Positions 1 to 49,021 of a stretch of 64,000 bases of DNA are shown here, one piece after another. The position numbers and the translations under genes are program-made. The DNA is from Escherichia coli (lineage in GTDB: Bacteria > Pseudomonadota > Gammaproteobacteria > Enterobacterales > Enterobacteriaceae), in the NCBI RefSeq assembly GCF_024700885.2, contig NZ_CP117016.1; one strand, given 5' to 3'. Positions within the stretch are counted from its first letter, which is position 1. Every line of letters starts with the position of its first letter. A model generated the notes under the pieces. The model saw nothing but the letters and a program-made list of their open reading frames with translations. It had not been told where the DNA came from and made no database searches.

Positions 1-1
1 T

Positions 2-670
2 AGCCCGGAGTTTGCGCTTAAGTTTAACCAGACCGTGCTGAAAGAGTCAGAGCGCTTTATCAATGAGATGTCACATCGCATCGCGCGTGACCAGCTTGCC
101 TTTGCAGAAACGGAGATGGAAAAGGCACGCCAGCGTCTGGACGCCAGCAAAGCGGAATTGCTCTCTTATCAGGACAACAACAACGTTCTGGATCCACAGG
201 CACAGGCACAGGCGGCGAGCACGTTAGTCAATACGCTGATGGGCCAGAAGATCCAGATGGAAGCGGATCTGCGTAACTTGCTGACGTATCTGCGTGAGGA
301 CGCCCCGCAAGTAGTGAGTGCGCGTAATGCGATTCAGTCATTGCAGGCACAAATCGATGAAGAACAAAGCAAAATCACTGCGCCACAGGGTGACAAGCTA
401 AACCGTATGGCAGTGGATTTTGAAGAAATCAAATCAAAAGTAGAGTTCAACACCGAGCTGTACAAACTGACCCTGACCTCCATTGAAAAGACCCGTGTAG
501 AAGCGGCTCGTAAGCTCAAGGTGCTGTCAGTGATCAGTTCGCCACAGTTGCCGCAGGAATCGTCTTTTCCAAATATCCCTTATTTGATCGCCTGCTGGTT
601 ACTGGTGTGCTGCCTGCTGTTCGGCACCCTGAAACTGTTGCTGGCTGTTATTGAAGATCACCGAGACTAA
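2..670 (+). CDS. kpsE: Capsule export inner-membrane protein KpsE (polysaccharide co-polymerase family), C-terminal part; 5' end lies outside the window
   Basis: Open frame runs from the window edge; translation has a coiled-coil-rich periplasmic region and a C-terminal hydrophobic segment, and sits directly upstream of kpsD-kpsU-kpsC-kpsS in the conserved region 1 order. Confidence 0.85.
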   Translation, partial: SPEFALKFNQTVLKESERFINEMSHRIARDQLAFAETEMEKARQRLDASKAELLSYQDNNNVLDPQAQAQAASTLVNTLMGQKIQMEADLRNLLTYLREDAPQVVSARNAIQSLQAQIDEEQSKITAPQGDKLNRMAVDFEEIKSKVEFNTELYKLTLTSIEKTRVEAARKLKVLSVISSPQLPQESSFPNIPYLIACWLLVCCLLFGTLKLLLAVIEDHRD

Positions 671-690: not shown

Positions 691-2370
691 GTGATGAAAT
701 TATTTAAATCAATTTTACTGATTGCCGCCTGTCACGCGGCGCAGGCCAGCGCGGCCATTGATATTAACGCTGACCCAAACCTTACAGGAGCCGCGCCGCT
801 TACCGGTATTCTGAACGGGCAACAGTCGGATACGCAAAACATGAGCGGCTTCGACAATACCCCGCCGCCCTCACCGCCGGTGGTAATGAGCCGTATGTTT
901 GGTGCTCAACTTTTCAACGGCACCAGCGCGGATAGCGGTGCGACGGTAGGATTCAACCCTGACTATATTCTGAATCCGGGTGATAGCATTCAGGTTCGCT
1001 TGTGGGGTGCGTTCACCTTTGATGGTGCGTTACAGGTTGATCCCAAAGGTAATATTTTCCTGCCGAACGTTGGTCCGGTGAAAGTTGCTGGCGTCAGTAA
1101 TAGTCAGCTAAATGCCCTGGTCACATCCAAAGTGAAGGAAGTATACCAGTCCAACGTCAACGTCTACGCCTCCTTATTACAGGCGCAGCCAGTAAAAGTG
1201 TACGTGACCGGATTTGTGCGTAATCCTGGTCTGTATGGCGGTGTGACGTCTGATTCGTTACTCAATTATCTGATCAAGGCTGGCGGCGTTGATCCAGAGC
1301 GCGGAAGTTACGTTGATATTGTGGTCAAGCGCGGTAACCGCGTGCGCTCCAACGTCAACCTGTACGACTTCCTGCTGAACGGCAAACTGGGGCTTTCGCA
1401 GTTCGCCGATGGTGACACCATCATCGTCGGGCCGCGTCAGCATACTTTCAGCGTTCAGGGCGATGTCTTTAACAGCTACGACTTTGAGTTCCGCGAAAGC
1501 AGCATTCCCGTAACAGAAGCGTTGAGCTGGGCGCGCCCTAAGCCTGGCGCGACTCACATTACGATTATGCGTAAACAGGGGCTGCAAAAACGCAGCGAAT
1601 ACTATCCGATCAGTTCTGCACCAGGCCGTATGTTGCAAAATGGCGATACCTTAATCGTGAGCACTGACCGCTATGCCGGCACCATTCAGGTGCGGGTTGA
1701 AGGCGCGCACTCTGGTGAACATGCCATGGTACTGCCTTATGGTTCCACTATGCGTGCGGTTCTGGAAAAAGTCCGCCCGAACAGCATGTCGCAGATGAAC
1801 GCGGTTCAGCTTTATCGCCCATCAGTAGCTCAGCGTCAGAAAGAGATGCTGAATCTCTCGCTGCAAAAACTGGAGGAAGCCTCACTTTCTGCCCAGTCAT
1901 CCACCAAAGAAGAAGCCAGCCTGCGAATGCAGGAAGCACAACTGATCAGCCGCTTTGTGGCGAAAGCACGCACCGTGGTTCCGAAAGGTGAAGTGATCCT
2001 CAACGAATCCAATATTGATTCTGTTCTGCTTGAAGATGGCGACGTCATCAATATTCCGGAGAAAACATCGCTGGTTATGGTTCATGGCGAAGTGCTGTTC
2101 CCGAACGCGGTGAGCTGGCAGAAGGGTATGACCACCGAGGATTACATCGAGAAATGTGGTGGCCTGACGCAGAAATCGGGTAACGCCAGAATTATCGTCA
2201 TTCGTCAGAACGGTGCAGCCGTCAACGCAGAAGATGTGGATTCACTCAAACCGGGCGATGAGATTATGGTTCTGCCGAAATATGAATCGAAAAACATTGA
2301 AGTTACCCGTGGTATTTCCACCATCCTCTATCAGCTGGCGGTGGGTGCAAAAGTGATTCTGTCTTTGTAA
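691..2370 (+). CDS. kpsD: Capsule polysaccharide export outer-membrane/periplasmic protein KpsD (Wza/OPX family)
   Basis: About 558 aa with an N-terminal signal peptide (MKLFKSILLIAACHAAQA); position between kpsE and kpsU. Confidence 0.9.
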   Translation: MMKLFKSILLIAACHAAQASAAIDINADPNLTGAAPLTGILNGQQSDTQNMSGFDNTPPPSPPVVMSRMFGAQLFNGTSADSGATVGFNPDYILNPGDSIQVRLWGAFTFDGALQVDPKGNIFLPNVGPVKVAGVSNSQLNALVTSKVKEVYQSNVNVYASLLQAQPVKVYVTGFVRNPGLYGGVTSDSLLNYLIKAGGVDPERGSYVDIVVKRGNRVRSNVNLYDFLLNGKLGLSQFADGDTIIVGPRQHTFSVQGDVFNSYDFEFRESSIPVTEALSWARPKPGATHITIMRKQGLQKRSEYYPISSAPGRMLQNGDTLIVSTDRYAGTIQVRVEGAHSGEHAMVLPYGSTMRAVLEKVRPNSMSQMNAVQLYRPSVAQRQKEMLNLSLQKLEEASLSAQSSTKEEASLRMQEAQLISRFVAKARTVVPKGEVILNESNIDSVLLEDGDVINIPEKTSLVMVHGEVLFPNAVSWQKGMTTEDYIEKCGGLTQKSGNARIIVIRQNGAAVNAEDVDSLKPGDEIMVLPKYESKNIEVTRGISTILYQLAVGAKVILSL

Positions 2371-2379
2371 GGAGTTGAA

Positions 2380-3120
2380 ATGAGCAAAGCAGTTATTGTC
2401 ATTCCGGCTCGTTATGGCTCATCGCGCCTGCCGGGTAAGCCACTGCTCGATATTGTTGGTAAACCGATGATCCAGCATGTTTACGAGCGTGCGTTACAGG
2501 TGGCGGGCGTTGCGGAAGTTTGGGTGGCAACAGACGATCCGCGTGTTGAACAGGCCGTGCAGGCATTTGGCGGGAAAGCCATCATGACGCGCAACGATCA
2601 TGAATCCGGCACCGATCGGCTGGTCGAGGTGATGCATAAAGTCGAGGCAGATATCTACATTAACCTGCAGGGCGACGAACCAATGATTCGCCCGCGGGAT
2701 GTAGAAACGCTGTTACAAGGAATGCGTGATGACCCCGCGTTGCCAGTGGCAACGCTATGCCACGCGATTTCTGCCGAAGAAGCTGCTGAGCCAAGCACGG
2801 TAAAAGTGGTGGTAAATACCCGCCAGGATGCGCTTTATTTCAGCCGTTCGCCTATTCCGTATCCGCGTAATGCTGAAAAAGCGCGCTACCTGAAACACGT
2901 TGGTATTTACGCTTATCGTCGCGATGTGCTGCAAAACTACAGCCAGTTACCGGAGTCCATGCAGGAGCAGGCAGAATCACTGGAGCAGCTGCGGTTGATG
3001 AGCGCGGGGATCAACATCCGCACATTTGAGGTTGCCGCAACCGGTCCGGGCGTCGACACCCCAGCATGCCTGGAAAAAGTGCGCGCCCTGATGGCACAGG
3101 AACTGGCTGAAAACGCATGA
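2380..3120 (+). CDS. kpsU: CMP-Kdo synthetase (3-deoxy-manno-octulosonate cytidylyltransferase), capsule-specific paralogue
   Basis: 246 aa; N-terminal [16 protein letters not shown] nucleotidyltransferase motif typical of KdsB/KpsU; RBS GGAG upstream. Confidence 0.9.
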
Positions 3121-5144
3121 TTGGCATTTTCTCGTCCGGTATCTGGCGTATTCCGCATCTGGAGAAATTTCTGGCGCAACCGTGCCAGAAACTTTCTCTG
3201 CTGCGCCCTGTTCCGCAAGAAGTTGATGCTATCGCCGTGTGGGGACATCGTCCCAGCGCGGCGAAACCAGTCGCCATCGCCAAAGCAGCGGGAAAACCCG
3301 TCATTCGTCTGGAAGATGGATTTGTGCGTTCGCTGGATCTTGGCGTCAATGGCGAGCCGCCGCTTTCTCTGGTGGTGGATGATTGTGGCATTTACTACGA
3401 TGCCAGCAAGCCTTCAGCACTGGAGAAACTGGTACAGGATAAAGCCGGAAATACAGCTCTGATAAGTCTGGCCAGAGAAGCGATGCACACCATCGTGACC
3501 GGGGATTTGTCGAAATATAACCTGGCACCTGCGTTTGTGGCTGATGAGTCAGAACGTTCAGACATCGTTCTGGTTGTCGATCAGACATTTAATGATATGT
3601 CAGTGACGTATGGCAATGCTGGCCCGCATGAGTTTGCTGCCATGCTGGAAGCCGCGATGGCGGAAAATCCTCAAGCCGAAATTTGGGTGAAGGTGCACCC
3701 AGATGTACTGGAAGGAAAGAAAACAGGTTATTTCGCTGATCTGCGCGCCACGCAACGAGTACGTTTGATTGCTGAGAATGTCAGCCCGCAGTCGCTGTTG
3801 CGACACGTTTCCCGGGTTTACGTCGTGACCTCCCAGTATGGCTTTGAAGCCTTGCTGGCAGGAAAACCAGTAACATGTTTCGGCCAGCCCTGGTATTCAG
3901 GTTGGGGCTTAACCGACGATCGTCATCCACAGTCCGCTTTGTTATCTGCCCGACGCGGTTCTGCCACGCTGGAGGAACTTTTTGCCGCTGCATACCTGCG
4001 TTACTGTCGCTATATCGATCCGCAAACGGGAGAAGTAAGCGATATATTTACTGTGCTGCAATGGCTGCAATTACAACGTCGACATCTGCAACAGCGTAAT
4101 GGTTATTTATGGGCGCCAGGCTTAACGCTGTGGAAGTCAGCGATCCTGAAACCTTTCTTGCAAACGGCAACAAACCGGCTGAGTTTTTCACGTCGTTGTA
4201 CTGCGGCGAGCGCCTGCGTGGTATGGGGTGTAAAGGGAGAACAGCAATGGCGAGCCGAAGCGCAACGAAAATCACTGCCGTTATGGCGAATGGAAGATGG
4301 TTTTCTGCGTTCATCCGGACTTGGCTCTGACCTTTTGCCGCCGCTATCGTTGGTCCTGGATAAACGCGGGATCTACTATGACGCCACGCGCCCCAGCGAC
4401 CTGGAAGTGTTGCTTAATCACAGCCAGTTAACACTGGCGCAGCAGATGCGAGCTGAGAAGTTGCGGCAACGGGTGGTTGAAAGCAAACTGAGCAAATACA
4501 ACCTAGGGGCCGATTTCTCTCTGCCTGCCGAAGCCCAAGATAAAAAAATCATCCTGGTGCCGGGTCAGGTAGAAGACGATGCCTCAATTAAAACAGGCAC
4601 TGTGTCGATTAAGAGCAACCTTGAGTTATTACGCACAGTACGCGAGCGCAATCCGCACGCCTACATTGTTTATAAACCGCACCCGGATGTACTGGTGGGG
4701 AATCGCAAGGGCAATATTCCGACAGAACTAATTGCTGAACTCGCTGATTATCAGGCACTGGACGCAGATATTATTCAATGCATTCAGCGCGCAGATGAAG
4801 TGCACACCATGACATCATTGTCCGGGTTTGAAGCGTTATTACATGGCAAGCAAGTTCATTGTTACGGCCTGCCCTTCTATGCCGGTTGGGGTTTAACCGT
4901 TGATGAACATCACTGCCCGCGCCGCGAACAAAAATTAACGTTAGCAGATTTGATCTATCAGGCGTTGATTGTTTATCCAACCTATATCCACCCAACACGG
5001 CTACAACCTATTACGGTTGAAGAGGCGGCGGAATATTTGATCCAGACGCCGCGCAAGCCGATGTTTATTACCCGAAAAAAAGCGGGACGAGTCATACGCT
5101 ATTACCGCAAATTAATTATGTTCTGCAAGGTCAGATTTGGCTAA
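3117..5144 (+). CDS. kpsC: Capsule beta-Kdo transferase KpsC (tandem duplicated domains)
   Basis: 675 aa; internal duplication visible in the translation (two copies of ...GFVRS.GLG...PPLSLV.D..GIYYDA... and ...[12 protein letters not shown]...); start overlaps kpsU stop (ATGA). Confidence 0.9.
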
Positions 5145-5178
5145 ACAATTTCATAGTTGACTATTACACAAATTATTT

Positions 5179-6414
5179 ATGCAAGGTAATGCACTAACCG
5201 TTTTATTATCCGGTAAAAAATATCTGCTATTGCAGGGGCCAATGGGACCCTTTTTCAGTGATGTTGCCGAGTGGCTAGAGTCATTAGGTCGTAACGCTGT
5301 GAATGTAGTATTCAACGGCGGGGATCGTTTTTACTGCCGTCATCGACAATACCTGGCTTACTACCAAACGCCGAAAGAGTTTCCCGGATGGTTACGGGAT
5401 CTCCATCGGCAATATGACTTTGATACCATCCTCTGCTTTGGTGACTGCCGCCCATTGCACAAAGAAGCAAAACGCTGGGCAAAGTCGAAAGGGATCCGCT
5501 TTCTGGCATTTGAGGAAGGATATTTACGCCCGCAATTTATTACCGTTGAAGAAGGCGGAGTGAACGCATATTCATCGCTACCGCGCGATCCGGATTTTTA
5601 TCGTAAGTTACCAGATATGCCTGCGCCGCACGTTGAGAACTTAAAACCTTCAACGATGAAACGCATTGGCCATGCGATGTGGTATTACCTGATGGGCTGG
5701 CATTACCGTCATGAGTTCCCTCGCTACCGCCACCACAAATCATTTTCCCCCTGGTATGAAGCTCGTTGCTGGGTTCGTGCGTACTGGCGCAAGCAACTTT
5801 ACAAGGTAACACAGCGTAAAGTATTGCCGCGGTTAATGAATGAGCTGGATCAGCGTTATTATCTTGCCGTTTTGCAGGTGTATAACGATAGCCAGATTCG
5901 TAACCACAGCAATTATAACGATGTGCGAGATTATATTAATGAAGTCATGTACTCATTTTCGCGTAAAGCGCCAAAAGAAAGTTATTTGGTGATCAAGCAC
6001 CATCCAATGGATCGTGGTCACAGACTCTATCGACCATTAATTAAACGGTTGAGTAAGGAATATGGCTTAGGTGAGCGCGTCATTTATGTGCACGATCTCC
6101 CGATGCCGGAATTGTTACGCCACGCAAAAGCGGTGGTGACAATTAACAGTACGGCGGGGATATCTGCGCTGATTCACAACAAACCACTCAAAGTGATGGG
6201 CAATGCCCTGTACGACATCAAAGGCTTGACGTATCAAGGGCATTTGCACCAGTTCTGGCAGGCCGATTTTAAACCGGATATGAAACTGTTTAAGAAGTTT
6301 CGGGGGTATTTATTGGTGAGGACGCAGATTAATGGGGTTTATTATGGTGATAGATGTTTTGAACATGATATTAAGGTGGATAAGGATTCTTGGAGTCTTA
6401 CACGTCAAGTTTGA
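5179..6414 (+). CDS. kpsS: Capsule beta-Kdo transferase KpsS
   Basis: About 400 aa, same fold family as the KpsC domains; last gene of region 1; the precise start codon is uncertain. Confidence 0.85.
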   Translation: MQGNALTVLLSGKKYLLLQGPMGPFFSDVAEWLESLGRNAVNVVFNGGDRFYCRHRQYLAYYQTPKEFPGWLRDLHRQYDFDTILCFGDCRPLHKEAKRWAKSKGIRFLAFEEGYLRPQFITVEEGGVNAYSSLPRDPDFYRKLPDMPAPHVENLKPSTMKRIGHAMWYYLMGWHYRHEFPRYRHHKSFSPWYEARCWVRAYWRKQLYKVTQRKVLPRLMNELDQRYYLAVLQVYNDSQIRNHSNYNDVRDYINEVMYSFSRKAPKESYLVIKHHPMDRGHRLYRPLIKRLSKEYGLGERVIYVHDLPMPELLRHAKAVVTINSTAGISALIHNKPLKVMGNALYDIKGLTYQGHLHQFWQADFKPDMKLFKKFRGYLLVRTQINGVYYGDRCFEHDIKVDKDSWSLTRQV

Positions 6415-6574
6415 AGATTAATATTTTTTAACAAAAATGGCTAATCATTACTTGTTAACCATTTAGTAAACTGCAAAAACACGAAATTATCAATTATACA
6501 AAACTTCAAGATTATTAATTAAATAACAAAAAAACGAACATATCTTAACTTTATGAAAAATAAATAATAATATA

Positions 6575-7711
6575 TTAATACAAACTCTCTAACTTATCTT
6601 TTTTAATTTTTGTATCTTCTTTTAAATACTCACACAGCCAGCGAATACGTTGCTTAAAACTCATATTTTCAAGCGATGAAAATGAATATGACAAAATGTA
6701 TTTTTGAATATACTCAGGACAAGACTCAATATTTAATATGTCATCGCCAACGTGAAATAAATTATGTTTATAATAAGATAATATCTTTTTAGGAATAAAA
6801 ACATTTTCTTTGCAATTACCATTGACTATAACACCGCATGGTATTTTACGAGAATGAAACTGAACTTCCATTGCTGATATATCTGTTAATGCATATGATA
6901 CTTTTATATTATTAGTTATCTTTCTTCGTAATTTAATTAGGGGGAATCGAGTTCCTTCAATGAATCCATTTGTTATTTTATAAACAATTAAACCAGCTTT
7001 CGTGAAAAGCCTAATACTCTCATTAAGAATGGCTTTGTATTTATGATCTCGATGACCTATGTTTGGATGTGCTTGTATATAAAGAATATTTATTTTTTTG
7101 ATTTTACAAAATTTTATTATCTTATGTGTGGTTTCATTATTTATCGAACTATAATTTTCTTCTGGGATTCCCCCCTCCCATGTTGGAGCATATACAGCAG
7201 AACGAGAATTTACATCAAACTGAAAATAATTATGTCCAATGAAAGTATTTCCTAATTTAATTACTTTCCCATTTCTAATATCGAATGGTGTAAAAATTCC
7301 GGACTTAAGGTATCTATCAATACCTACATCTCCAGAAGTGACTACGTAATCATAAATTTTTATAATCGGTTTTACAGAAGCAAGTTTATGGCTTTCACCA
7401 TGTGTAACAAAAACGTGAATCAGGTTTCTATTTGCCACAATACGACAATTTGATTGAGCGTTGAATAAATAGAAAACAATTTTACCATTATTAAAAACCA
7501 AGTCTGAATTTTTCTTAATAAATTTAAATGAAATATTATGTTTATTAAACTCCTCAGTAAATTTTTTTTCTATTTCTTTATAGTACTTACAATACACACT
7601 TATGCAATCCTCCACATTGAATACTTGTGCCTGAAAATAACGAATTAACTGTTCCAAAGCTCCTTCAATTTTTGTATCAATATATAAATAGTATAGGTTA
7701 TTAACAGACAC
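6575..7711 (-). CDS. Region 2 TagF-like CDP-polyol phosphotransferase (teichoic-acid-type)
   Basis: 378 aa; contains the YAPTWEG motif characteristic of CDP-glycerol/ribitol phosphotransferases (TagF/TagB family); AT-rich codon usage. Confidence 0.6.
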   Translation of the reverse strand: MSVNNLYYLYIDTKIEGALEQLIRYFQAQVFNVEDCISVYCKYYKEIEKKFTEEFNKHNISFKFIKKNSDLVFNNGKIVFYLFNAQSNCRIVANRNLIHVFVTHGESHKLASVKPIIKIYDYVVTSGDVGIDRYLKSGIFTPFDIRNGKVIKLGNTFIGHNYFQFDVNSRSAVYAPTWEGGIPEENYSSINNETTHKIIKFCKIKKINILYIQAHPNIGHRDHKYKAILNESIRLFTKAGLIVYKITNGFIEGTRFPLIKLRRKITNNIKVSYALTDISAMEVQFHSRKIPCGVIVNGNCKENVFIPKKILSYYKHNLFHVGDDILNIESCPEYIQKYILSYSFSSLENMSFKQRIRWLCEYLKEDTKIKKDKLESLY

Positions 7712-7727
7712 AATATATACCTTTTAT

Positions 7728-9101
7728 TTATCGCCCATCTTTTCTAACGTCTATAATAAGACCCGTGCTATTAGCTCCTAATACTTTGAGGCTTGTCAGG
7801 GCAACATCTCTAGGATCTAATAATAACTCTGCAGGTTCAATGCCAAAGTTGATGGTACGCATTGGAGTTGCAGTTCGTTCAGGGTTAATACAGTTTACTT
7901 TAATATTTTCAGATGACCATTCCTCAGCTATTGCTTGTGTAAAGTTTACGATAGCAGCTTTTGATGAGGAATAAAGAGCATAATATGAACGGCCACGCGT
8001 GTATGAACTTGAAGTAAAATTAAGTAGCATCCCTGAAGATTTCTTCAAATATTGCTTGGATGCCATCGCTATATTTACAGCCCCAATAAAATTTATATTT
8101 ATTAGAGTATGAACTTCTTCATTTGTTAACATATCAATAGGTTTTTTTATCAAAACCCCAGCAGTATTAATGATATAATCGATGCAACCTAACTTTTTCT
8201 CCATTTGAGCAAGATAGTTTTTTACACACTCAATATCAACAATATCAACATTATTGAAGCTACGGCTAGCAATTTCAACATTCGCGCCTAATAAAATAGC
8301 TGCTTTCTTTATCTCAAGACCAATCCCGCTGTTTCCACCAAATATAATTATATTTTTACCTTTGATATAATCGAGATTATCACCAGTGTTAAATGAAATT
8401 TTATTTGCTTCCTGAAGAAGCTTCTCAGCAATAAAAAGATCAATTGGGTGTGTAACTTTCATGTTTGATTCAGCACCAACCACAGTTGCTACACGTACAC
8501 CAGGTACCATTGAGCGTACAACACCACAATCACAAGTAAAACTAAATCGCTGAGCATTGATGGCACGTTGATAGGCCTGTTTCAGCGTCCCTAATTTAAA
8601 TGCCTGAGGGGTCTGGCCCCGGCGCATTACAGCCCTGTTTGGAATATTAGAAATACATCCATCGTCATACACTTCGACGAGCGTATCAGCGGATGGAATT
8701 ACAACATCTACAGCCTCAAAATTTCTTAAAGCATCAATGCAATTATTAATAATTGATTCATTAATTAATGGTCTTACTGCATCATGAAGTAAAATATTAG
8801 AATTGTTATCTTCTCCCTCAAGACCTTGTAATGCAGAATAGGTTGAATCAAATCGCTCTTTTCCACCATTAAAAACTTTTGTAACTTTTTTCCATTGATT
8901 TTTTTTTACAAATTTCCAAATTAGGTCCACATAACTTGGGTGAGATACGATAATAATTTCATCAATATTCAATGATTTTTCAAAAGCTTCTACTGTGTAC
9001 TCAATTACAGCCTTACCTGCTAATTTTGTAAATTGTTTCGGAAGTGTACCGCCAAATCTTGCCCCCATACCCCCCGATAGAATAACAGCAATATTTTTCA
9101 T
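7728..9101 (-). CDS. Bifunctional CDP-polyol synthase: N-terminal IspD/TarI-like cytidylyltransferase fused to C-terminal short-chain dehydrogenase/reductase (Haemophilus Bcs1-like CDP-ribitol synthase architecture)
   Basis: N-terminus MKNIAVILSGGMGARFG..LPKQF (cytidylyltransferase); C-terminal half has the SDR glycine-rich NAD(P) motif IIIFGGNSGIGLE. The track ORF begins 30 codons upstream, but the ATG at 9101 is preceded by a GGTGGA RBS and matches the family N-terminus. Confidence 0.7.
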   Translation of the reverse strand: MKNIAVILSGGMGARFGGTLPKQFTKLAGKAVIEYTVEAFEKSLNIDEIIIVSHPSYVDLIWKFVKKNQWKKVTKVFNGGKERFDSTYSALQGLEGEDNNSNILLHDAVRPLINESIINNCIDALRNFEAVDVVIPSADTLVEVYDDGCISNIPNRAVMRRGQTPQAFKLGTLKQAYQRAINAQRFSFTCDCGVVRSMVPGVRVATVVGAESNMKVTHPIDLFIAEKLLQEANKISFNTGDNLDYIKGKNIIIFGGNSGIGLEIKKAAILLGANVEIASRSFNNVDIVDIECVKNYLAQMEKKLGCIDYIINTAGVLIKKPIDMLTNEEVHTLININFIGAVNIAMASKQYLKKSSGMLLNFTSSSYTRGRSYYALYSSSKAAIVNFTQAIAEEWSSENIKVNCINPERTATPMRTINFGIEPAELLLDPRDVALTSLKVLGANSTGLIIDVRKDGR

Positions 9102-9201
9102 TTTTCCACCATATAATTTTATAAATGCAATAAATATAAGAATCATTAAATATGACACAACATGATATTTAAAATGTTGTGTCATACACAAACAAATAAA
9201 A

Positions 9202-12200
9202 TTAATGAATAATCTTCTTAGATAGCTTAATTATTACATTACCCAGCACTGGCTTTAATATTGGATTAAATGCCGTTTTGCCAGCAAGTCTAACAATTTT
9301 TTTATTTGAATCAGAGAAGAACATTTCAGGATTTCGTTCAAGTTTATTGAGAAGTCTTATCTTTCTGCTGTCAGAAGTTTGTGCTGCTAAATGTTGATTA
9401 ATTTTAGCCGGTTCTTTTATCTTTACTTTTGAAGTATTAGTTGGTAGTACTTTTTGCTTGGCGTTACTAGGTTTAGCAGATAAGGCTTTAGGGTTTTTAA
9501 GATATTCTTGATATTCTTTTTTTATCGAAGGTGTTGATCTTGCTAAACTCATTTTAATAGATCTTGTAAAAGCACCAACTGGTTTTCCTTGTTTTAATAA
9601 GGCTAAAGATTCTGAAGTGATTGCTGGTGCAAATTCCCTTAATGCTCCCAGAGATGCTTCAGAGTATAACAAATGAGCCATTGAGTTTACTAATACCGGA
9701 TCATCTTGATGATCTCTATACCATTCAAAAGCAAAGCTTGAGAAGTGACGCTCAATTGTGCTTACATCAGATGTGAAGGGTAAGCTATAAAATTCGTTCA
9801 CGAAATTTTTCAAGTACTTACCTAGAGACCAATAGAGTTCAGCATCAAACCTAGCCCGAGCAATAACAGGTACAATTTTTTTTAATTCTCGCTTATAGCC
9901 CGTGACAGTACCATGTGGACAATTAGCAAATATAGCCTCGACAGGAATGAGTGATATATTATTAGTGCTATAATTTATTCTAATATCATTATCAATGGAT
10001 GGGAGAATACTTCGATAATAATAGAATACGCATTCGGAAGGCTTATCAAAAGCATTATCTATAAGTTTTCTTAAACATGTCTGTGTATACCCTCTGGCCC
10101 AATATTCTACGAATGCATATTTTTCATCCGGATTGATTTCTTGTTTGATATAATCAATAACGATCTTTCTCTCTTCTTTAGCCTTCTCAATCAAATAATC
10201 ATGATACTTTGTGGATTTGCTAAAAAACTCTCTGAGTGCAACAAGTTCTGCAGGGCTAATTTTAGAGGATTTGTTGAGCCCAGTTTCTGGAAAAAGCTTT
10301 TGAAATAAATTATGACTGATACTTAATGAAGAAATTAACTTATCATAATTATCAACACCAACCAAATTACCAAAATTAGAGAAAAACTCATCATCAATAC
10401 TTTCAATCATTGCAGGAACACGCCATGCTCGACGAGAACCATAAAAATATTTCGTTTTGATATTCAGTTTTTTCAAACTAACATATGCGTCAGCAATTTC
10501 TTTAAGAAAATGTCCATCTCGCGACACAAAATATAATGTTTCAATCCCTCTATCAATGGCATCCCTAATACACCAAGCAACATATGGAACCATATAACCT
10601 GAGACATGCGCGTAACAGAAATAATCTTTTTCATTAATGCTATTAAAACGCATTCGAGATAACAGACCGGTCAGAAGATAAGAATTGTAATTTCGTATTT
10701 TATTAATCAAAGCAGTTTCATAAGCATTGATTTTCGGTATTTTATGTATTTGAGGTTTTATTCCTAATTCCTTAGCTTTTGTTCCATCTGATGTAGCATT
10801 ATCACCATAATGAATCCATTCTTTAAAGCGCCAAGGAGAATGGTCTTTATAAACCCTAAGATATAACTGCTGGCTTGCTTTTTGCACACCATACTCAGAG
10901 GATAGATACAACGGCAACTTATTTAATAAAGGACTTACGTGAGCCAGCATATTCGAAATAACTTCTTTAGGTAGATACATGTCCGATATTAATACAACCG
11001 TTTCATTCTCTTTAACCAGTTGCTCGGCTTTTTTCACCATCTCATCTATGGGAATTACGTTTTCATATTCAGCCTGTACTTCCCAATCCATTAGCTTAGT
11101 AATTTGACTGTCATTTAGATTATATACTGATTGTATTCTTGAGAATATGTCTCGATAGCTAATTTCATAATGTCCAATGGTCTTGATCAATAACTCTCGG
11201 CAATTTGCTTCTGCTTGCATCCTGATATTAACATAATCAGTATGGAAGATTTCAGGGAACCCCTCATCAGAAGCTTTTATTAATTCCATAACCTTATAGA
11301 AAATACCTTTTGGAATTAAGCATTTACGTCCAATAAGAGTATCAAAAACATCAAAACTATAAAACGTTGGCAAAACCCCTTTATTACCAATTTTAAATTG
11401 ATTCGTTTGATTAATTATATTTTCAAATGTATTTTCATCATCATACGACCAAAATAACTCTTTTATTTTTTCAAGATTATTATCAGAATAAGTTTGATAT
11501 TCATCAATAGCATTAATTAACTCACCAAAACTTTGACACATTTTTCCTGATGTGTGCGATTGATAATCATAAAGCATGATGTGTTTTTCATCGTCAAAAT
11601 CAAAAATATATCTAATGAAATTCTTAACACCTGCAGATACCAAATCATAATAAATTGACGAATAATCTATTATTGCCAGATCAATTTTATTGAAAATTTC
11701 ATATATATCATTCTTATTATCCCAGAAAATAATATTTCTATATTGACCCACCTGTTTTTGAAGTGTTTTAAAATAAAAATCATTAGATATTTCAGGATGC
11801 AATTTAATAATTAGGCATAAATTATTTTTCTCTAGTGTTTTAGATAAAATATTTATATCCTTAATCGCCAAATAGAGGAAATTCTTAGGATTTTTCTCTC
11901 TAAATGTCGGCGCGTACAATGCTAGCTTCGTATCTTTAGGCAACCCAGCCTGAGAAATAATATCATGATTATAAGTAACTACAGGCTCGTATAATGATTG
12001 ATAAATGCAACGTGGGTAACCACCTCTTATAATTTGGTCATCAGTTAAATCCAGCTGTTCTTTAAAATGTTTCTCCATAAATGGAGACGTTACCAAAAAA
12101 CACATATTATTGCTGAATTGCTCATTATATGTTATGTGCTTTTTAGCGATTCTTTGATATAAATATTCTCTATCAGCCTTCTTCTCTATTTGCTTTAATC

Positions 12201-12525
12201 CAACACCATGATACAAATTTAATATTTTAGTATTTAACAACTCTTTTGGGTATATTTCCTTACAATGCTCATTTACATAAACACCAGCAGCATTTAATAA
12301 TTGAGCACCTTCTTTTGATTTAAAATGACATGCATTAAAACCTAACGATTTAATATAGTCTACATTTTTCTGATCACCACTGATATAACAAGCAAAAATA
12401 TCAGGTCGATAGTTTGAAATATATATAAACAGATATTTCACATTCCCTGTAAATAGACCGGCACTATTAAATAACCAGATGTTATCTTTAGTATAATTAT
12501 TAATTACATAGTTAATATCTTGCAT
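9202..12525 (-). CDS. Multi-domain capsule polymerase: TagF-like polyol-phosphate transferase domain, HAD-like phosphatase domain, a further C-terminal domain and a lysine-rich tail
   Basis: 1107 aa; LYAPTFR motif (TagF family) in the N-terminal third; FDVFDTLIGRK (HAD motif I) and HYGDNATSDG (HAD motif III/IV-like) mid-protein; basic Lys-rich C-terminus; AT-rich. Confidence 0.6.
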   Translation of the reverse strand: MQDINYVINNYTKDNIWLFNSAGLFTGNVKYLFIYISNYRPDIFACYISGDQKNVDYIKSLGFNACHFKSKEGAQLLNAAGVYVNEHCKEIYPKELLNTKILNLYHGVGLKQIEKKADREYLYQRIAKKHITYNEQFSNNMCFLVTSPFMEKHFKEQLDLTDDQIIRGGYPRCIYQSLYEPVVTYNHDIISQAGLPKDTKLALYAPTFREKNPKNFLYLAIKDINILSKTLEKNNLCLIIKLHPEISNDFYFKTLQKQVGQYRNIIFWDNKNDIYEIFNKIDLAIIDYSSIYYDLVSAGVKNFIRYIFDFDDEKHIMLYDYQSHTSGKMCQSFGELINAIDEYQTYSDNNLEKIKELFWSYDDENTFENIINQTNQFKIGNKGVLPTFYSFDVFDTLIGRKCLIPKGIFYKVMELIKASDEGFPEIFHTDYVNIRMQAEANCRELLIKTIGHYEISYRDIFSRIQSVYNLNDSQITKLMDWEVQAEYENVIPIDEMVKKAEQLVKENETVVLISDMYLPKEVISNMLAHVSPLLNKLPLYLSSEYGVQKASQQLYLRVYKDHSPWRFKEWIHYGDNATSDGTKAKELGIKPQIHKIPKINAYETALINKIRNYNSYLLTGLLSRMRFNSINEKDYFCYAHVSGYMVPYVAWCIRDAIDRGIETLYFVSRDGHFLKEIADAYVSLKKLNIKTKYFYGSRRAWRVPAMIESIDDEFFSNFGNLVGVDNYDKLISSLSISHNLFQKLFPETGLNKSSKISPAELVALREFFSKSTKYHDYLIEKAKEERKIVIDYIKQEINPDEKYAFVEYWARGYTQTCLRKLIDNAFDKPSECVFYYYRSILPSIDNDIRINYSTNNISLIPVEAIFANCPHGTVTGYKRELKKIVPVIARARFDAELYWSLGKYLKNFVNEFYSLPFTSDVSTIERHFSSFAFEWYRDHQDDPVLVNSMAHLLYSEASLGALREFAPAITSESLALLKQGKPVGAFTRSIKMSLARSTPSIKKEYQEYLKNPKALSAKPSNAKQKVLPTNTSKVKIKEPAKINQHLAAQTSDSRKIRLLNKLERNPEMFFSDSNKKIVRLAGKTAFNPILKPVLGNVIIKLSKKIIH

Positions 12526-12784
12526 TTATAAAACGCTCTCTGAATTTTTTACTTATGATAAACACCACATAATTGTGGTAATATTATATTTAACTAAAAG
12601 TGTGAATATTTATAGTGGAGTTTATAATTCAAATCATGACTTATAGCCTATTATCTTATTTATTTAAATCTGAATCATGTACGCATATAAAAGACAAACG
12701 ATTTATTTTAAAGAAAAAACAAATAAAGGAAATTATAACTTACAGTAATTAGAAGACTATTTAGTCTGATTGTTATATAAAATC

Positions 12785-13441
12785 TTATTCTTGTTTATAC
12801 TCATCGATCCCCTCCTGAACATCCTCATAAAAACTAACCACATTGTCATCCTTAAACACAATCGCCACATCACAAAACTCTTTCAATGAATTCAAACTAT
12901 GTGAAACCATTAAAAAACTAGATTCTTTATGCCTTTCTTTAAACAATTGAGCGCATTTTTCTTTAAACCTGGCATCACCGACTGCAGTTACTTCATCGAC
13001 GATATAATAATCAAACTTAAATGCCATGCTTAAACCAAAGCCTAAACGCGATCGCATACCAGATGAGTAAGTTTTAATCGGCATATCGAAGTACTTACCG
13101 AGTTCGGCAAATTCTTCGACAAACTCAATTTTCTCTTTCAGCTCTTCTTGCTTCGCGTATAACCGCGCAACAAATTTTACGTTTTCGCGTCCGGTTAAAC
13201 TTCCCTGAAATCCACCTGCGAGGCCGACTGGCCATGATATTGTTTTATTAGTGATGATCTTTCCACTGTCGGGGCGGTCAATGCCGCCAATCATTCTCAG
13301 TAACGTTGATTTACCCGCTCCGTTGCGACCAATAAAGGCAACACTTTTTCCTGAAGGGATTTCAATATTTAAATCCTTAAAGACATAATGTCGACCCGCT
13401 GGCGTGCGATATGACTTCGTCAAATTTTCAATCTTAATCAT
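12785..13441 (-). CDS. kpsT: Capsule export ABC transporter ATP-binding protein KpsT
   Basis: 218 aa; Walker A GRNGAGKST, ABC signature YSSGMRSRL, Walker B YYIVDE; overlaps the kpsM stop. Confidence 0.92.
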   Translation of the reverse strand: MIKIENLTKSYRTPAGRHYVFKDLNIEIPSGKSVAFIGRNGAGKSTLLRMIGGIDRPDSGKIITNKTISWPVGLAGGFQGSLTGRENVKFVARLYAKQEELKEKIEFVEEFAELGKYFDMPIKTYSSGMRSRLGFGLSMAFKFDYYIVDEVTAVGDARFKEKCAQLFKERHKESSFLMVSHSLNSLKEFCDVAIVFKDDNVVSFYEDVQEGIDEYKQE

Positions 13442-14214
13442 GATGTCAGCATTGCCTCTTCACGCGTTCGGTATAAAGCCAGACCGATGAACAGGGTGAC
13501 CAGAGTGAACATTGCAAGGTAGTTCAGACTAACGCCTTCGCTGATATAGCCAGGCATAACTGCCTCGCGGCTTAACTCTACGACATGCACTAATGGGTTC
13601 CAGAGTAGATATGACCAGTATTGCTTTGGAATTGAGTGCAGAGGGAACATGATGCAGGAGATGAAATACAGCGGCTTAAGCAGTATCGGCAGGACCTTTT
13701 GCATTTCAGGGAAAGTCTTACCAACGACCATGAATATTAAGCCGACGCCACATGAAAGAATGATTAACAAACTCCAGGTGAGCACAAGTTGTAAAAAATT
13801 TGTTATCTCGAAATATTCGCCTGCCATCCTGACAATGAGCATAAGCAGAATATAAACAGCAACGTAAATCAGCGTCTCAAGCAGGGCGCGCGCAATGATC
13901 GTATCGATGGGTTTTACTGGGCGATAATTAAACAGCCCCAGGTTCGCTTCAATAGCACTTACAGAACGTTTGCTGATACTGCTAAAGATAAAAAAGGGAA
14001 TCAGGCCATTAAGTAAAAACACCGGGAATGAGATGTCTGGCATCGTGCGGTGCATAATGTAACCAAAAATGCCCAACAGTATCAGCAAATGCGCAGAGGG
14101 TTCGAGAATCGCCCACAGATATCCCAGACGGAACTTACCAAAGCGTGTTCGTATTTCTCGTAGAAATAATGCCTCTACGGTGACTTTCTGGACTTCAAAT
14201 CCACTTCTTGCCAT
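13438..14214 (-). CDS. kpsM: Capsule export ABC transporter permease KpsM
   Basis: Polytopic ABC-2 type permease; start chosen at MARSGFEVQK (about 258 aa) rather than the longer track ORF, because an ops-like element lies inside the longer ORF. Confidence 0.88.
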   Translation of the reverse strand: MARSGFEVQKVTVEALFLREIRTRFGKFRLGYLWAILEPSAHLLILLGIFGYIMHRTMPDISFPVFLLNGLIPFFIFSSISKRSVSAIEANLGLFNYRPVKPIDTIIARALLETLIYVAVYILLMLIVRMAGEYFEITNFLQLVLTWSLLIILSCGVGLIFMVVGKTFPEMQKVLPILLKPLYFISCIMFPLHSIPKQYWSYLLWNPLVHVVELSREAVMPGYISEGVSLNYLAMFTLVTLFIGLALYRTREEAMLTS

Positions 14215-14243
14215 TTGATGATGTGATCCTAATCTCTTCAGGT

Positions 14244-14255
14244 ACGCTACCGCCC
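14244..14255 (-). promoter_or_regulatory. ops-like element (RfaH recruitment site, JUMPstart) in the region 3 leader about 30 nt upstream of the kpsM start
   Basis: Minus strand reads GGCGGTAGCGTA, matching the ops core GGCGGTAG at the position expected ahead of kpsM. Confidence 0.65.
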
Positions 14256-14349
14256 TTGGCTTAACAGCTACCAATACACTGGAGGTAATGCTTATTTGTA
14301 ACTGGATAAAATTTACTCAGACGGTTTGACCTTTTTAATAGCCGCAAAA

Positions 14350-14616
14350 AATTTCAGCAGAAATTATTTCCGCAGGGATAAATAGATCTATTTCCGTCTC
14401 GTTTCTTCTAATCCATTCTTCAGGCATGAATGTATTCGGTCTTCTGGTAATTTCAGAAAACTGGCCGTTTTAGAATGTAAAGTTAATTTCTCAGGAAATT
14501 ATTTCTACCTCTTTTTGCTTAACCAATATGGCTTGAAAAAGACGTAAAGCAGCATGCGTTCTGGATTACTCCGGAACACACTTATTCAAAATGGGCTGCT
14601 AATTTCGCAAGAAATT
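14350..14616. repeat. Three copies of a palindrome AATTTC-N4-GAAATT, each followed by ATTT(C/T), in the kps region 3 upstream/leader region; degenerate half-copies continue to about 15070
   Basis: Read directly: aatttcagcagaaatt (about 14350), aatttctcaggaaatt (about 14485), aatttcgcaagaaatt (about 14601); half-sites near 14449, 15000 and 15058. Confidence 0.7.
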
Positions 14617-15386
14617 ATTTTTTACTATTACTGTTAACTACTTGATTATAATACCACCTATGAATTTTATGCGTAACAATACCTGCAATCTGTTTCAAAC
14701 CAGAACACACGCGATTGATTACCAATAAATTGTTCACCGAGAAACTATTTCCCTATTTAAAATTCACTCGTGTACTTCTTATTTATATCTACAGCCCCCT
14801 CTTTACAGCCATATTTGTGATTTATATCACATTTAAATGGTGTTATTTAAGTTGCATCAATAATCCCGAAGGTAATTATTTTCGTCGATTAAAATATACA
14901 TCTTGATTATTTTGTGTATTTATTTTAACCAGTGTTACAACCAACACCATCCCTCAGTAGATATACCTGAGCAGACATTTCTTAAAATTGACGAATAGTT
15001 TCCCTGGAAATTATTATGCTTATTTGAAATTCCCTTTCTGATTATCTCCAGTAATTTTACTAATTTCCAGGCTACACAAAATACAGATCACATAAGAATT
15101 ATCCTATATGTTTTGACCTATCAATTGTTACTCAATGATTTATTACAACTATTAATAATCATAATGTGTCAAAACACTTAAGCATCTTTACAGTCTTAGA
15201 AAGGTGTCGATTAACGAAGGCTACATGGTGAAAAACAGGTTCCTTCAGTGTTACCGAATATTCCGTGGTGGGCTGGAGGGAGATAATTCTTGCTACATCG
15301 AAACTCAGCCCGGTGAGCGGGTTTGACAGTTCCGCACTCACCATTGGGCTAAGGGTTATCAGGTGGGGTTAAGGAAATGGCAATAC

Positions 15387-15923: not shown

Positions 15924-15924
15924 G

Positions 15925-19607: not shown

Positions 19608-19610
19608 TGA

Positions 19611-20066: not shown

Positions 20067-20082
20067 GTGATAACTCCGTAAA

Positions 20083-44523: not shown

Positions 44524-44553
44524 CTCGCTAACGCCCTAAATCCTTTGAATTTT

Positions 44554-45117: not shown

Positions 45118-45125
45118 TGCTCCGG

Positions 45126-47299: not shown

Positions 47300-47344
47300 T
47301 TCAGCCTGACCTTATCGTTGATAGTAAAAAGTATCCCGCCAGCC

Positions 47345-48103: not shown

Positions 48104-48134
48104 TCGTTAAATCATCCCCTATCCATTTTGGTGA

Positions 48135-48848: not shown

Positions 48849-49021
48849 GAAAAACCCGGCAGCAAATAATGTATTGAATATTACGTGGTCCGTGCTCAGA
48901 ATATCCGTTCAACCTTATTGTGACAATGGTTAATTGTGACATTGACCTGAATTACGCTTTCATAAAAACATATTAACCAAATAAATATTTTTAATGGATA
49001 TTCAAATTAAAGGATATATTC

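Follow-up and report, generated by a model that had tools for sequence, protein, structure and literature searches.

The window, the whole 64,000-nucleotide stretch of Escherichia coli DNA that we analysed, contains a capsule locus of the ordinary E. coli group 2 type, which depends on an ABC transporter; region 2 is the serotype-specific middle of this locus. Judging from its sequence, region 2 is probably a K18/K22-type member of the K18/K22/K100 ribose-ribitol-phosphate family, with enzymology like that of Haemophilus influenzae type b (Hib). A preliminary description of this DNA had predicted a ribitol-phosphate capsule of the K18/K22/K100 kind, which is borne out by a CDP-ribitol synthase and a polymerase collinear with Hib Bcs3. 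The serotype, left undecided in that description, is now narrowed: not K100, and most likely K18/K22.

Organisation of the capsule locus

Three minus-strand ORFs, at 6575-7711 (378 aa), 7728-9191 (487 aa in the mechanical ORF list) and 9202-12525 (1107 aa), lie exactly where a three-gene region 2 had been proposed. This block sits between kpsEDUCS and kpsTM. NCBIfam matches on the flanks comprise KpsE, a polysaccharide export protein (KpsD), KpsU (KdsB type), KpsS, KpsT and KpsM, with a weak match for KpsC, and the RefSeq annotation of an identical locus (L001) is concordant with the flanking-gene assignments. The genes and the element discussed below are as follows.

1..670, plus strand: 3' part of kpsE, region 1 (TIGR01010 BexC/CtrB/KpsE, profile positions 152-362; RefSeq KpsE in L001); its start is upstream, outside the window
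694..2370, plus strand: kpsD, periplasmic/outer-membrane export protein, region 1 (polysaccharide export family matches; RefSeq CDS of 1677 nt in L001)
2380..3120, plus strand: kpsU, CMP-Kdo synthetase, region 1 (385.8 bits to NF009905, whose cutoff is 255)
3117..5144, plus strand: kpsC, beta-Kdo transferase extending the poly-Kdo linker, region 1 (675 aa, named 'capsular polysaccharide biosynthesis protein' by RefSeq; its equivalents in homologous loci match PF05159)
5179..6414, plus strand: kpsS, first beta-Kdo transferase, region 1 (NF050054 KpsS, E 8.9e-119)
6575..7711, minus strand: Bcs2-like 378-aa protein, a diverged TagF/TagB-like GT-B enzyme and candidate ribitol-phosphate transition (priming) transferase
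7728..9101, minus strand: fused CDP-ribitol synthase, Bcs1-type (NF001183, SDR matches, TarI PDB matches, RefSeq start)
12785..13441, minus strand: kpsT, ABC transporter ATPase, region 3 (TagH/Wzt-type ABC ATPase matches; RefSeq CDS)
13438..14214, minus strand: kpsM, ABC transporter permease, region 3 (NF050053 KpsM, E 2.3e-55; RefSeq CDS of 258 aa, replacing a 278-aa mechanical ORF)
14244..14254, minus strand: ops element GGCGGTAGCGT, 30 nt upstream of the kpsM start

Positions 6500-13000 have a GC content of 0.25-0.36, whereas the kps region 1 genes on the left have 0.45-0.56 and kpsM/T have 0.41-0.44, confirming that region 2 is AT-rich relative to its flanks. Low GC is the standard ground for reading a kps region 2 as horizontally acquired, and such an origin is plausible here from base composition. 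The ops element is the single exact match in the window, although the match count is not significant by itself (at least one match in 32 of 100 shuffles). It is its position upstream of kpsM that fits the known kps architecture, in which RfaH is loaded at ops and transcription then continues from region 3 into region 2.

The CDP-ribitol synthase and the polymerase

The second gene had been described as a fused cytidylyltransferase-SDR enzyme of the CDP-ribitol synthase kind, an assignment that our matches uphold. Its cytidylyltransferase half matches the NCBIfam model for D-ribitol-5-phosphate cytidylyltransferase (NF001183) at 172.2 bits, above the cutoff of 166, its best PDB matches are TarI (4jis and 6xhp), and SDR matches cover aa 276-476 of the 487-aa ORF. 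Along its entire length the enzyme shares 46% identity with the Bcs1-like protein of a Hib-like locus, and its K100 orthologue (98.9% identical) is assigned to PIRSF036586 CDP-ribitol_syn (2.6e-162) in the kTYPr supplement. The RefSeq start, an ATG at 9101 with a GGTGG Shine-Dalgarno-like motif upstream, gives 457 aa; this is probably the true length, the TTG start of the 487-aa ORF being too long.

The 1107-aa protein, also said to be a multi-domain polymerase, is collinear from residue 14 to residue 1020 with Bcs3, the capsule polymerase of Hib (structure 8a0c; E 1.2e-179), and shares its CroT-CrpP-CriT order.

11377..12525, minus strand: CroT domain, aa 1-383, TagF-like ribitol-5-phosphate transferase (PF04464 at aa 12-372, E 1.8e-35; aligns to Bcs3 CroT)
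10756..11376, minus strand: CrpP domain, aa 384-590, HAD-type ribose-5-phosphate phosphatase (collinear with Bcs3 CrpP)
9466..10755, minus strand: CriT domain, aa 591-1020, PRPP-dependent ribofuranosyltransferase (collinear with Bcs3 CriT)
9202..9465, minus strand: C-terminal tail, aa 1021-1107, plus the stop codon (the Bcs3 alignment ends at query residue 1020)

All the catalytic and binding residues named in PMC10299916 are kept. In CroT, H106, G109 and H243 correspond to Bcs3 H96, G99 and H233; in CrpP, D392 and K549 to D386 and K548; and in CriT, S668/R669/D670, S697/R698/R702, E807, T814 and E863 to S678/R679/D680, S707/R708/R712, E818, T825 and E874. The alignment to Bcs3 gave no match to its SH3b domain in the tail (aa 1021-1107), where the alleles of the window and of K100 share 98.9% identity.

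These features also bear on the glycerol-phosphate (K2) capsule that the preliminary description had kept as an alternative. The Pfam family called 'CDP-glycerol glycerophosphotransferase' does include the N-terminus of the polymerase, and the product name in RefSeq is of this family too. However, CroT carries the glycine (G109) of the HGVG motif that has been tied to ribitol-phosphate transfer, the glycerol-phosphate transferases having proline at that position (Cifuente et al. 2023, PMC10299916), and the polymerase carries the ribose-adding CrpP and CriT domains. The sole nucleotide-activating enzyme of region 2 is of the CDP-ribitol synthase type, a TarI-like part fused to an SDR; we found neither a glycerol-3-phosphate cytidylyltransferase nor a LicD-type CpsC homologue in region 2. 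Moreover, K2 ranks with the commonest K types (PMC13171598), yet region 2 was matched in just 132 of 5426 complete E. coli genomes. The chance of a K2-type polymer is thus vanishingly small, and we exclude it.

Probable assignment to K18/K22 within the family

The K18/K22 (kTYPr K18_K22) and K100 loci have the same three region 2 genes as the window, of the same lengths, in the same order and on the same strand as kpsMT. Among the 132 matches in complete genomes there are only two variants, one of the window type (18 genomes, each with a region identical to the window's) and one of the K100 type (114 genomes). Against the latter variant (L002) the three proteins are identical at 367/378 (97.09%), 452/457 (98.91%) and 907/1107 (81.93%) positions.

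K100 itself, the sister type, is a ->3)Ribf(1->2)ribitol-5-P capsule that cross-reacts with Hib and is common in ST131. It shares the three-gene architecture and has 378-aa and CDP-ribitol synthase genes 97-99% identical to the window's, and a typing tool without a K18/K22 reference could return K100 as the best match. It is the polymerase that makes K100 highly improbable for the window and leads us to reject it: the protein is only 82% identical to the allele of the KL100 reference CP013658, of EC958 and of 112 other genomes, the polymerase cores of CP013658 and EC958 being 100% identical to that of L002. The low value arises from a divergent cassette of about 2.6 kb inside the gene.

9650..12250, minus strand: divergent cassette of the polymerase gene, window compared with K100 (from DNA identity to the K100 locus)

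Within the cassette the DNA identity drops from 97-99.6% to 70-79%, recovering on both sides. It corresponds to aa 91-958, spans all three catalytic domains and holds 196 of the 200 differing positions, the others being given as 34, 74, 91... (at the N-terminal edge) and 1050.

The assignment to K18/K22 therefore rests on the exclusion of K100 together with a fingerprint of three identities. The kTYPr supplement gives 97.098, 98.908 and 82.13% for genes 7, 8 and 9 of K18_K22 against K100, with the same lengths of 1107 and 485 aa, and the agreement of our three values with these makes K18/K22 the most likely identity. For the polymerase, 81.93% here and 82.13% as published are about two residues apart, and the alleles may not be identical.

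A rival reading is an unserotyped sibling of K18/K22 and K100, with a related but chemically distinct ribose-ribitol-phosphate polymer and possibly an unnamed Kaptive-style KL type. The window is known by its identity fingerprint and not by a direct match to a K18/K22 reference sequence, and further variants exist, among them a polymerase in metagenomes (P0166, 76% identical) and a 92%-identical 378-aa gene (P0049). The published K18 polymerase of an NCTC strain is moreover described as two ORFs, STI11141.1 and STI11142.1 (Cifuente et al., PMC10299916), unlike the intact gene of the window; the kTYPr K18_K22_9 entry is also intact at 1107 aa, and the two NCTC ORFs may result from a frameshift or from faulty assembly. 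The database of Gladstone et al. includes an unnamed KL138, sister of KL100. KL138 belongs to ST131 clade A and, with branch lengths of about 0.034 each, is closer to KL100 than is the window locus (88.4% DNA identity); it is probably a different locus. We nevertheless regard an unserotyped sibling as unlikely. The gene 7 identity equals the published one and those of genes 8 and 9 fall within about two residues; it would be surprising if an independent third variant gave the same three values, and the complete genomes contain just the two variants. The K18/K22-type locus of the window is already catalogued, and unserotyped siblings exist. K18 and K22 themselves are indistinguishable from the locus, the acetyltransferase being encoded elsewhere (PMC13171606).

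The 378-aa gene as a counterpart of bcs2

The 378-aa protein, labelled 'hypothetical' by RefSeq, had been called TagF-like. As a direct sequence match this label fails, since none was found in Pfam, NCBIfam or PDB; as remote homology it holds. With the family profile, hundreds of proteins are matched at E <= 1e-10, and PF04464 is present in 39 of 55 sampled distant relatives. The invariant motifs of the family, (T)HGES.K, YAPTWEGG, HPN.GHR and D.SAME, parallel HG..K, YAPT.R, HP and DYSS of the TagF family, including the two histidines essential in TagF-like enzymes. Structure prediction, conserved motifs and transitive homology together place the protein in a putative diverged TagF/TagB-like branch, and by synteny the gene is the counterpart of Hib bcs2.

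In all eight genomic contexts, each a capsule locus, the family adjoins CDP-ribitol synthase genes, and this strict pairing argues for CDP-ribitol as the substrate. In Hib, Bcs1 and Bcs3 suffice for polymer synthesis in vitro (PMC10299916), which leaves Bcs2 free for another role. As a model we take CpsA (TagB-like), the transition transferase for the glycerol-phosphate capsules of Actinobacillus pleuropneumoniae, which is not needed for polymerisation (Litschko et al. 2024, PMC11666461). Both proteins are small members of the TagF/TagB superfamily, encoded in a region 2 of ABC-transporter type next to a CDP-polyol gene. CpsA, however, is readily recognised as a PF04464 protein, uses CDP-glycerol and has a LicD-type CpsC partner, whereas the 378-aa family misses the Pfam threshold, pairs with CDP-ribitol synthases and lacks a CpsC partner in region 2. 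By this analogy the Bcs2-like family is most plausibly a candidate ribitol-phosphate priming ("transition") transferase. It is possible, though doubtful, that the protein has the GT-B fold but another role, whether epimerase-like catalysis, the regulation or termination of chain length, or service as a non-catalytic scaffold in the complex for polymerisation and export; the reach of the profile to PF04464 proteins, the retained TagF-type motifs and the pairing with CDP-ribitol synthases speak against this.

Proposed pathway and relation to known systems

Relative to Hib cap region 2 (bcs1-bcs4; Bcs3 PDB 8A0C, 8A0M), the window has a Bcs1-type synthase, a homologue in the Bcs2 position and a CroT-CrpP-CriT polymerase, but its genes are arranged differently, with the polymerase first, a bcs4 (PF05704) homologue is absent from the region, the polymerase lacks the SH3b polymer-binding domain and the export genes are kps, not bex/hcs. 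The expected linkage is Ribf(1->2)ribitol, phosphorylated at O-2 of the ribose, in contrast to Hib, which has Ribf(1->1)ribitol and the phosphate at O-3. With the Gram-positive wall teichoic acid enzymes (TarI/TarJ, TarL/TarK, TagF) the system shares CDP-ribitol formation by a TarI-like enzyme plus a reductase, GT-B TagF-like transfer and two essential histidines. Here, however, a single fusion protein covers both steps to CDP-ribitol, and the polymer would alternate ribose and ribitol phosphate, on a poly-Kdo phosphatidylglycerol lipid, with export by KpsMT/ED.

The pathway steps have been shown in Hib and are proposed here by homology. Transcription of region 2 would occur by RfaH/ops-dependent read-through from the kpsM promoter. 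The 457-aa Bcs1-like enzyme would reduce ribulose-5-phosphate to ribitol-5-phosphate and couple this with CTP to give CDP-ribitol. The 1107-aa Bcs3-like polymerase would then add one repeat unit per cycle, CriT transferring ribose-5-phosphate from PRPP to the terminal ribitol, CrpP removing the 5-phosphate from the ribose and CroT transferring ribitol-5-phosphate from CDP-ribitol to the ribose. The K18/K22 product would be ->2)-beta-D-Ribf-(1->2)-D-ribitol-(5-P->, K18 being the O-acetylated form by way of an acetyltransferase outside the locus. KpsS and KpsC would make the poly-Kdo glycolipid, and the polymer would be exported by KpsMT together with KpsED. In addition to these steps, the Bcs2-like 378-aa protein, as a transition transferase, may place the first ribitol-phosphate onto the poly-Kdo.

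Organisation of the capsule locus

A mechanical ORF list recovered the three genes of region 2 exactly where the preliminary description had placed them:

6575-7711, minus strand, ORF of the 378-aa protein
7728-9191, minus strand, ORF of the fused enzyme, 487 aa by the mechanical list
9202-12525, minus strand, ORF of the 1107-aa polymerase

For the fused enzyme, RefSeq prefers an ATG at 9101 with a GGTGG motif upstream, giving a protein of 457 aa. The strong AT-richness claimed for region 2 also holds, with a GC content of 0.25–0.36 (6500-13000) compared to 0.45–0.56 in the genes on its left and 0.41–0.44 in the two genes on its right. The left flank carries kpsE (truncated at the window start), kpsD, kpsU, kpsC and kpsS on the plus strand, and the right flank carries kpsT and kpsM on the minus strand, which they share with the region 2 genes. 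NCBIfam models matched KpsE, KpsD (type), KpsU, KpsS, KpsT and KpsM in these flanks. RefSeq concurs on the flanking genes and, in an identical locus, places kpsF immediately upstream of the window. This is an E. coli group 2 capsule locus with standard flanks, in which regions 1 and 3 surround a serotype-specific region 2. The window matches the E. coli MLI114 chromosome (NZ_CP117013.1) at 100% identity.

An ops element, GGCGGTAGCGT, lies 30 nt upstream of the kpsM start annotated by RefSeq (14214, 258 aa). The mechanical ORF at 13438-14274 is longer (278 aa, from a TTG at 14274) and would cross the ops element at 14244-14254, making the RefSeq start the sensible one. When 6300-15400 was scanned for promoters and terminators, promoter-like sites were fewer than in shuffled sequence, and no tRNA genes were found within the window.

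Directly after kpsM, 15387-31846 holds a complete T2SS-beta (gsp) set, from yghD/gspM to gspC with gspS2 and pppA, accompanied by sslE, encoding a secreted lipoprotein metalloprotease, and followed by the glc operon. T2SS-beta, sslE and glc are the usual chromosomal surroundings of kps loci of this sort. Conservation of the 1.1-kb spacer at 14275-15390 extends to 1691 genomes. Further along, the genes of 43290-49558 are annotated as a fatty acyl-AMP ligase, an NAD-dependent epimerase, an acyl carrier protein and a serine palmitoyltransferase (spt), after which come genes paralogous to lptF and lptG, which encode LPS export permeases; the cluster adjoins yghO and a 'lipopolysaccharide biosynthesis protein'. 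Serine palmitoyltransferase next to additional LptF/G copies is an unusual pairing in E. coli.

A CDP-ribitol synthase and a Bcs3-type polymerase

The middle gene had been described as a fused cytidylyltransferase-SDR enzyme, and a TarI-type half and an SDR half do lie in one polypeptide. The N-terminal half matches the NCBIfam D-ribitol-5-phosphate cytidylyltransferase model NF001183 (172.2 bits against a curated cutoff of 166), and its best PDB matches are the teichoic-acid enzymes TarI 4jis (1e-34) and 6xhp, which score above IspD. The C-terminal half is matched by many SDR models (aa 276-476 of the 487-aa ORF). Compared end to end with the Bcs1-like protein of a Hib-like locus, the whole enzyme shows 46% identity, and the kTYPr supplement (PMC13171606) places its K100 orthologue (98.9% identical) in PIRSF036586 'CDP-ribitol_syn' (2.6e-162). 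We therefore predict a bifunctional CDP-ribitol synthase of Bcs1/Acs1 type, combining reductase and pyrophosphorylase.

The polymerase is collinear over residues 14-1020 with Bcs3 of Haemophilus influenzae type b (Hib; PDB 8A0C, E 1.2e-179), whereas Pfam recovers only its N-terminal TagF-like part (PF04464, aa 12-372, E 1.8e-35). Bcs3 comprises three fused enzymes, the ribitol-5-phosphate transferase CroT, the HAD phosphatase CrpP and the PRPP-dependent ribofuranosyltransferase CriT (Cifuente et al. 2023, PMC10299916). We transferred the key residues named in that study through the Bcs3 alignment, with positions checked by script, and find all of them kept. In CroT these are H106, G109 and H243 (Bcs3 H96, G99 and H233, where H96 and H233 are the essential histidines), and in CrpP the nucleophile D392 (D386) and the motif III lysine K549 (K548). 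In CriT they are S668/R669/D670 (S678/R679/D680), S697/R698/R702 (S707/R708/R712), E807 (E818), T814 (T825) and E863 (E874), which take in the D680/E818 pair and the PRPP-binding residues. The multi-domain polymerase recognised earlier is thus Bcs3-like, and is predicted to make a ribose-ribitol-phosphate polymer from PRPP and CDP-ribitol. Within its HGVG motif, G109 lies three residues past the catalytic histidine, at the position where glycine marks transferases of ribitol phosphate and proline those of glycerol phosphate (PMC10299916).

The SH3b-like polymer-binding domain of Bcs3 (Bcs3 1037-1115) has no counterpart in the window polymerase, where the alignment ends at residue 1020 of 1107. 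This agrees with the E. coli K18 homologues of Bcs3, which are without SH3b (PMC10299916); SH3b is an accessory, non-catalytic feature. Elsewhere in the family, some Bcs3-like polymerases, the metagenome proteins P0186 and P0191 (1259-1260 aa), bear an extra TPR domain matched by several TPR Pfam families. It is reminiscent of the Actinobacillus pleuropneumoniae polymerase CpsD, whose TPR permits use of a poly(glycerol phosphate) primer.

Assignment of the K type

The capsule had initially been narrowed to a ribitol- or glycerol-phosphate polymer of the K18/K22/K100 or K2 type. The type of the CDP-ribitol synthase, G109 and the ribose-adding domains together decide for ribitol rather than glycerol, so that the ribitol part of that proposal stands and a K2-type capsule is excluded. 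Against K2, a glycerol-phosphate type, region 2 has only three genes, its nucleotide-activating enzyme is of ribitol type and its CroT carries the ribitol-type glycine.

Region 2 is present in 132 of 5426 complete E. coli genomes, in two versions only. The window version (at least 99% identity) occurs in 18 genomes and a variant, 88% identical across the whole region, in 114. The polymerase core of the variant is 100% identical in CP013658 (uk_P46212) and in the ST131 strain EC958, and the Gladstone et al. database uses CP013658 as its KL100/K100 reference; judged by this sequence match, the 114-genome variant is K100. The window proteins compare with those of the K100-type variant locus at 367/378 (97.09%), 452/457 (98.91%) and 907/1107 (81.93%) identity. 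The published values for K18_K22_7, _8 and _9 against K100_7, _8 and _9 are 97.098, 98.908 and 82.13%, with gene 9 encoding 1107 aa in both types (PMC13171606 supplement). Since the first identity is exact and the other two are within about two residues of the published ones, we assign the window, with fairly high confidence, to the K18_K22 type. K100 itself was rejected for the window, as the polymerase has 82% amino acid identity to the KL100 reference and its core falls to 60–80% by megablast band, or 70–79% by alignment. We also considered KL138 (Gladstone et al.) and dropped it, as it occurs in ST131 clade A and is nearer KL100 than the window locus is.

Reference strains of K18a, K18ab and K22 (GCA_977946865, GCA_977946875 and GCA_977947955) have identical clusters, and the acetyltransferase separating K18 from K22 must be outside the cluster (PMC13171606); the locus alone therefore cannot tell K18 from K22. 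EC0026B (ST484) and MLI114 both have an identical locus, but publications on them report neither a K nor an O type. The K18 polymer is ->2)-beta-D-Ribf-(1->2)-D-ribitol-(5-P-> (PMC10299916). The same study found the K18 polymerase of one NCTC strain as two ORFs (STI11141.1 and STI11142.1), a split that guided the design of Bcs3 truncations, and an intact homologue in a non-serotyped strain. Since kTYPr K18_K22_9 and the window gene are both intact, a frameshift or an error in the NCTC assembly probably accounts for the split.

The two serotypes differ by an intragenic cassette

Over 6750-9500, the DNA of the window and that of the K100 locus are 97–99.6% identical, and this span takes in the genes for the 378-aa protein and the CDP-ribitol synthase as well as the polymerase 3' end. 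Identity then falls to 70–79% at about 9650-12250 before climbing back to 94% at the polymerase 5' end. Of the 200 amino acid differences between the two polymerases, 196 fall within residues 91-958. As the differences are confined largely to a stretch of about 2.6 kb, the serotypes differ essentially by one intragenic cassette. Rodriguez, Jann and Jann are said to have described K22, in 1988, as the non-acetylated form and to have placed the K100 phosphodiester on ribose O-3. Because the polymers differ in the ribose position bearing the phosphodiester, divergence limited to CroT might be expected. This is ruled out, however, since the cassette covers CroT, CrpP and CriT, with identities to K100 of 83.6, 76.3 and 79.8%, respectively, compared to 98.9% in the C-terminal tail. 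The window/K100 pair is in effect a natural chimera for mapping the part of the polymerase behind the O-2 versus O-3 phosphodiester linkage.

The 378-aa protein belongs to a diverged TagF/TagB branch

The first region 2 gene had been called TagF-like. Direct searches of the 378-aa protein against NCBIfam, PDB by sequence and Pfam (PF04464, E <= 0.001) gave no match, nor did its family profile against PDB sequences. The family is well conserved, at about 380 aa, and comprised 288 clusters at E <= 0.001 in the first search, with members in E. coli, E. marmotae, Rahnella, Plesiomonas, Acinetobacter and Psychrobacter. None of these clusters has a precomputed Pfam domain, and PF04464 appeared in only 3 of 36 family members even at E <= 0.1. 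Invariant residues include H99, H104-G-E-S, K109, Y174-A-P-T-W-E-G-G, H215-P-N, G219-H-R and D277.S-A-M-E.

With the direct searches empty, homology had to be traced through distant relatives. A family-profile search of 1.84 billion representative proteins gave 1230 matches at E <= 0.001, of which 669 were at E <= 1e-10, and PF04464 (E <= 0.001) was found in 39 of 55 distant relatives sampled from this list. An AlphaFold model built from the family alignment predicts a GT-B fold (pLDDT 86.5, pTM 0.84). When the family was compared by hhalign with an alignment of CroT domains (E 4e-4, probability 35%), YAPTWEG paired with YAPTfRe, HPN with HPe and TDISAME with VDYSSIYY. With the PF04464-bearing relatives as the decisive evidence and the hhalign result beside them, the family is placed, via intermediates, within the TagF/TagB superfamily as a diverged branch. 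The TagF-like label is thus upheld at the superfamily level, but not as a direct PF04464 match. The branch is a large, unnamed and Pfam-invisible one, to which the protein at the Hib bcs2 position probably belongs.

We inspected the surroundings of family genes in eight loci: two other E. coli kps region 2 types (L003 and L005), Psychrobacter (L007), Acinetobacter (L008), Plesiomonas (L009), an assembly labelled Mannheimia haemolytica (L010), Neisseria perflava (L011) and a metagenome contig (L012). The family gene directly adjoins an IspD + SDR fusion gene in all eight, and seven of them clearly lie in an ABC-transporter capsule cluster. Putative polymerases vary by locus and include Bcs3-like proteins, separate PF04464 genes, GT2 genes and others. 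In L003 (6654-12187) and in L005/L006 (7264-14075) we observe the same 457-aa CDP-ribitol synthase and a 58–63%-identical family member together with different small PF04464 genes (and an added GT2 gene in L005/L006), without a Bcs3-like polymerase; these loci predict other ribitol-phosphate capsules.

The gene order of L010 is export genes, Bcs1-like gene, family gene, a gene for a 1209-aa protein that matches the Bcs3 structure at 1901 bits, a PF05704 gene and two KpsC/S-like genes. This is the Hib cap order, and the family gene therefore sits at the bcs2 position there. Its product is 35% identical to the window 378-aa protein (E 9e-65) and stands in here for Hib Bcs2. At this locus (GCA_054660935.1, contig BAAGAW010000054.1, positions 3262-18301), another species of Pasteurellaceae could encode a ribose-ribitol-phosphate capsule like that of Hib, or the assembly may be contaminated or carry the wrong label.

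A possible role in priming

H. influenzae serotypes a and b both have ribitol-phosphate capsules. Of their region II gene pairs, only bcs1/acs1 and bcs2/acs2 are common to the two (PMC6790013). In vitro, Bcs1 and Bcs3 suffice for the Hib polymer, and Bcs2 carries no assigned function (PMC10299916). In the glycerol-phosphate capsules of A. pleuropneumoniae, a TagB-like transition transferase, CpsA, has been described (Litschko et al. 2024, PMC11666461), and the 378-aa family would be its ribitol counterpart. By this analogy, the family could be a ribitol-phosphate transition transferase that attaches an initial ribitol-5-phosphate, taken from CDP-ribitol, to the poly-Kdo glycolipid, a suggestion we rate at somewhat less than an even bet. 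A full-text literature search for a ribitol-phosphate transition transferase found no paper.

Capsule synthesis from this locus would then proceed in four steps. In the first, ribulose-5-phosphate, NADPH and CTP would be converted to CDP-ribitol. In the second, CriT would put ribose-5-phosphate (from PRPP) on ribitol, CrpP would dephosphorylate it and CroT would add ribitol-5-phosphate from CDP-ribitol to the ribose. In the third, the Bcs2-like enzyme may prime the poly-Kdo glycolipid. In the fourth, KpsS/C would build the poly-Kdo glycolipid and KpsMT/ED export the polymer, with RfaH acting at ops to allow read-through from kpsM into region 2. The first, second and fourth steps draw on established knowledge of homologous systems and on the residues and architecture conserved here. 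The third is suggested by the superfamily membership of the 378-aa protein, its strict pairing with CDP-ribitol synthase, the dispensability of Bcs2 for Hib polymerisation and the CpsA analogy (PMC11666461). The same reading would extend to every ribitol-phosphate capsule exported by an ABC transporter, with Hib, Hia and E. coli K18/K22/K100 primed in this way along with unnamed types. Among the latter we would include, with no greater confidence, types in E. coli, Acinetobacter, Psychrobacter, Neisseria, Mannheimia and Plesiomonas.

Implications

The locus itself is already known, as K18/K22 and K100 region 2 are in the 2026 E. coli typing catalogues (PMC13171606, PMC13171598), and the mechanism of the polymerase family was dissected for Hib in 2023. 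The present assignments are of value for annotation, given that RefSeq names the 1107-aa polymerase 'CDP-glycerol glycerophosphotransferase family' and the Bcs2-like 378-aa protein 'hypothetical'. Moreover, typing tools without a K18/K22 reference could report K100 for this locus, an error of some consequence given the cross-reactivity of K100 with Hib and its tracking in ST131. Finally, the pairing of the Bcs2-like gene with CDP-ribitol synthase across genera makes the lipid attachment of ribitol-phosphate capsules, including that of the Hib vaccine antigen, directly testable.
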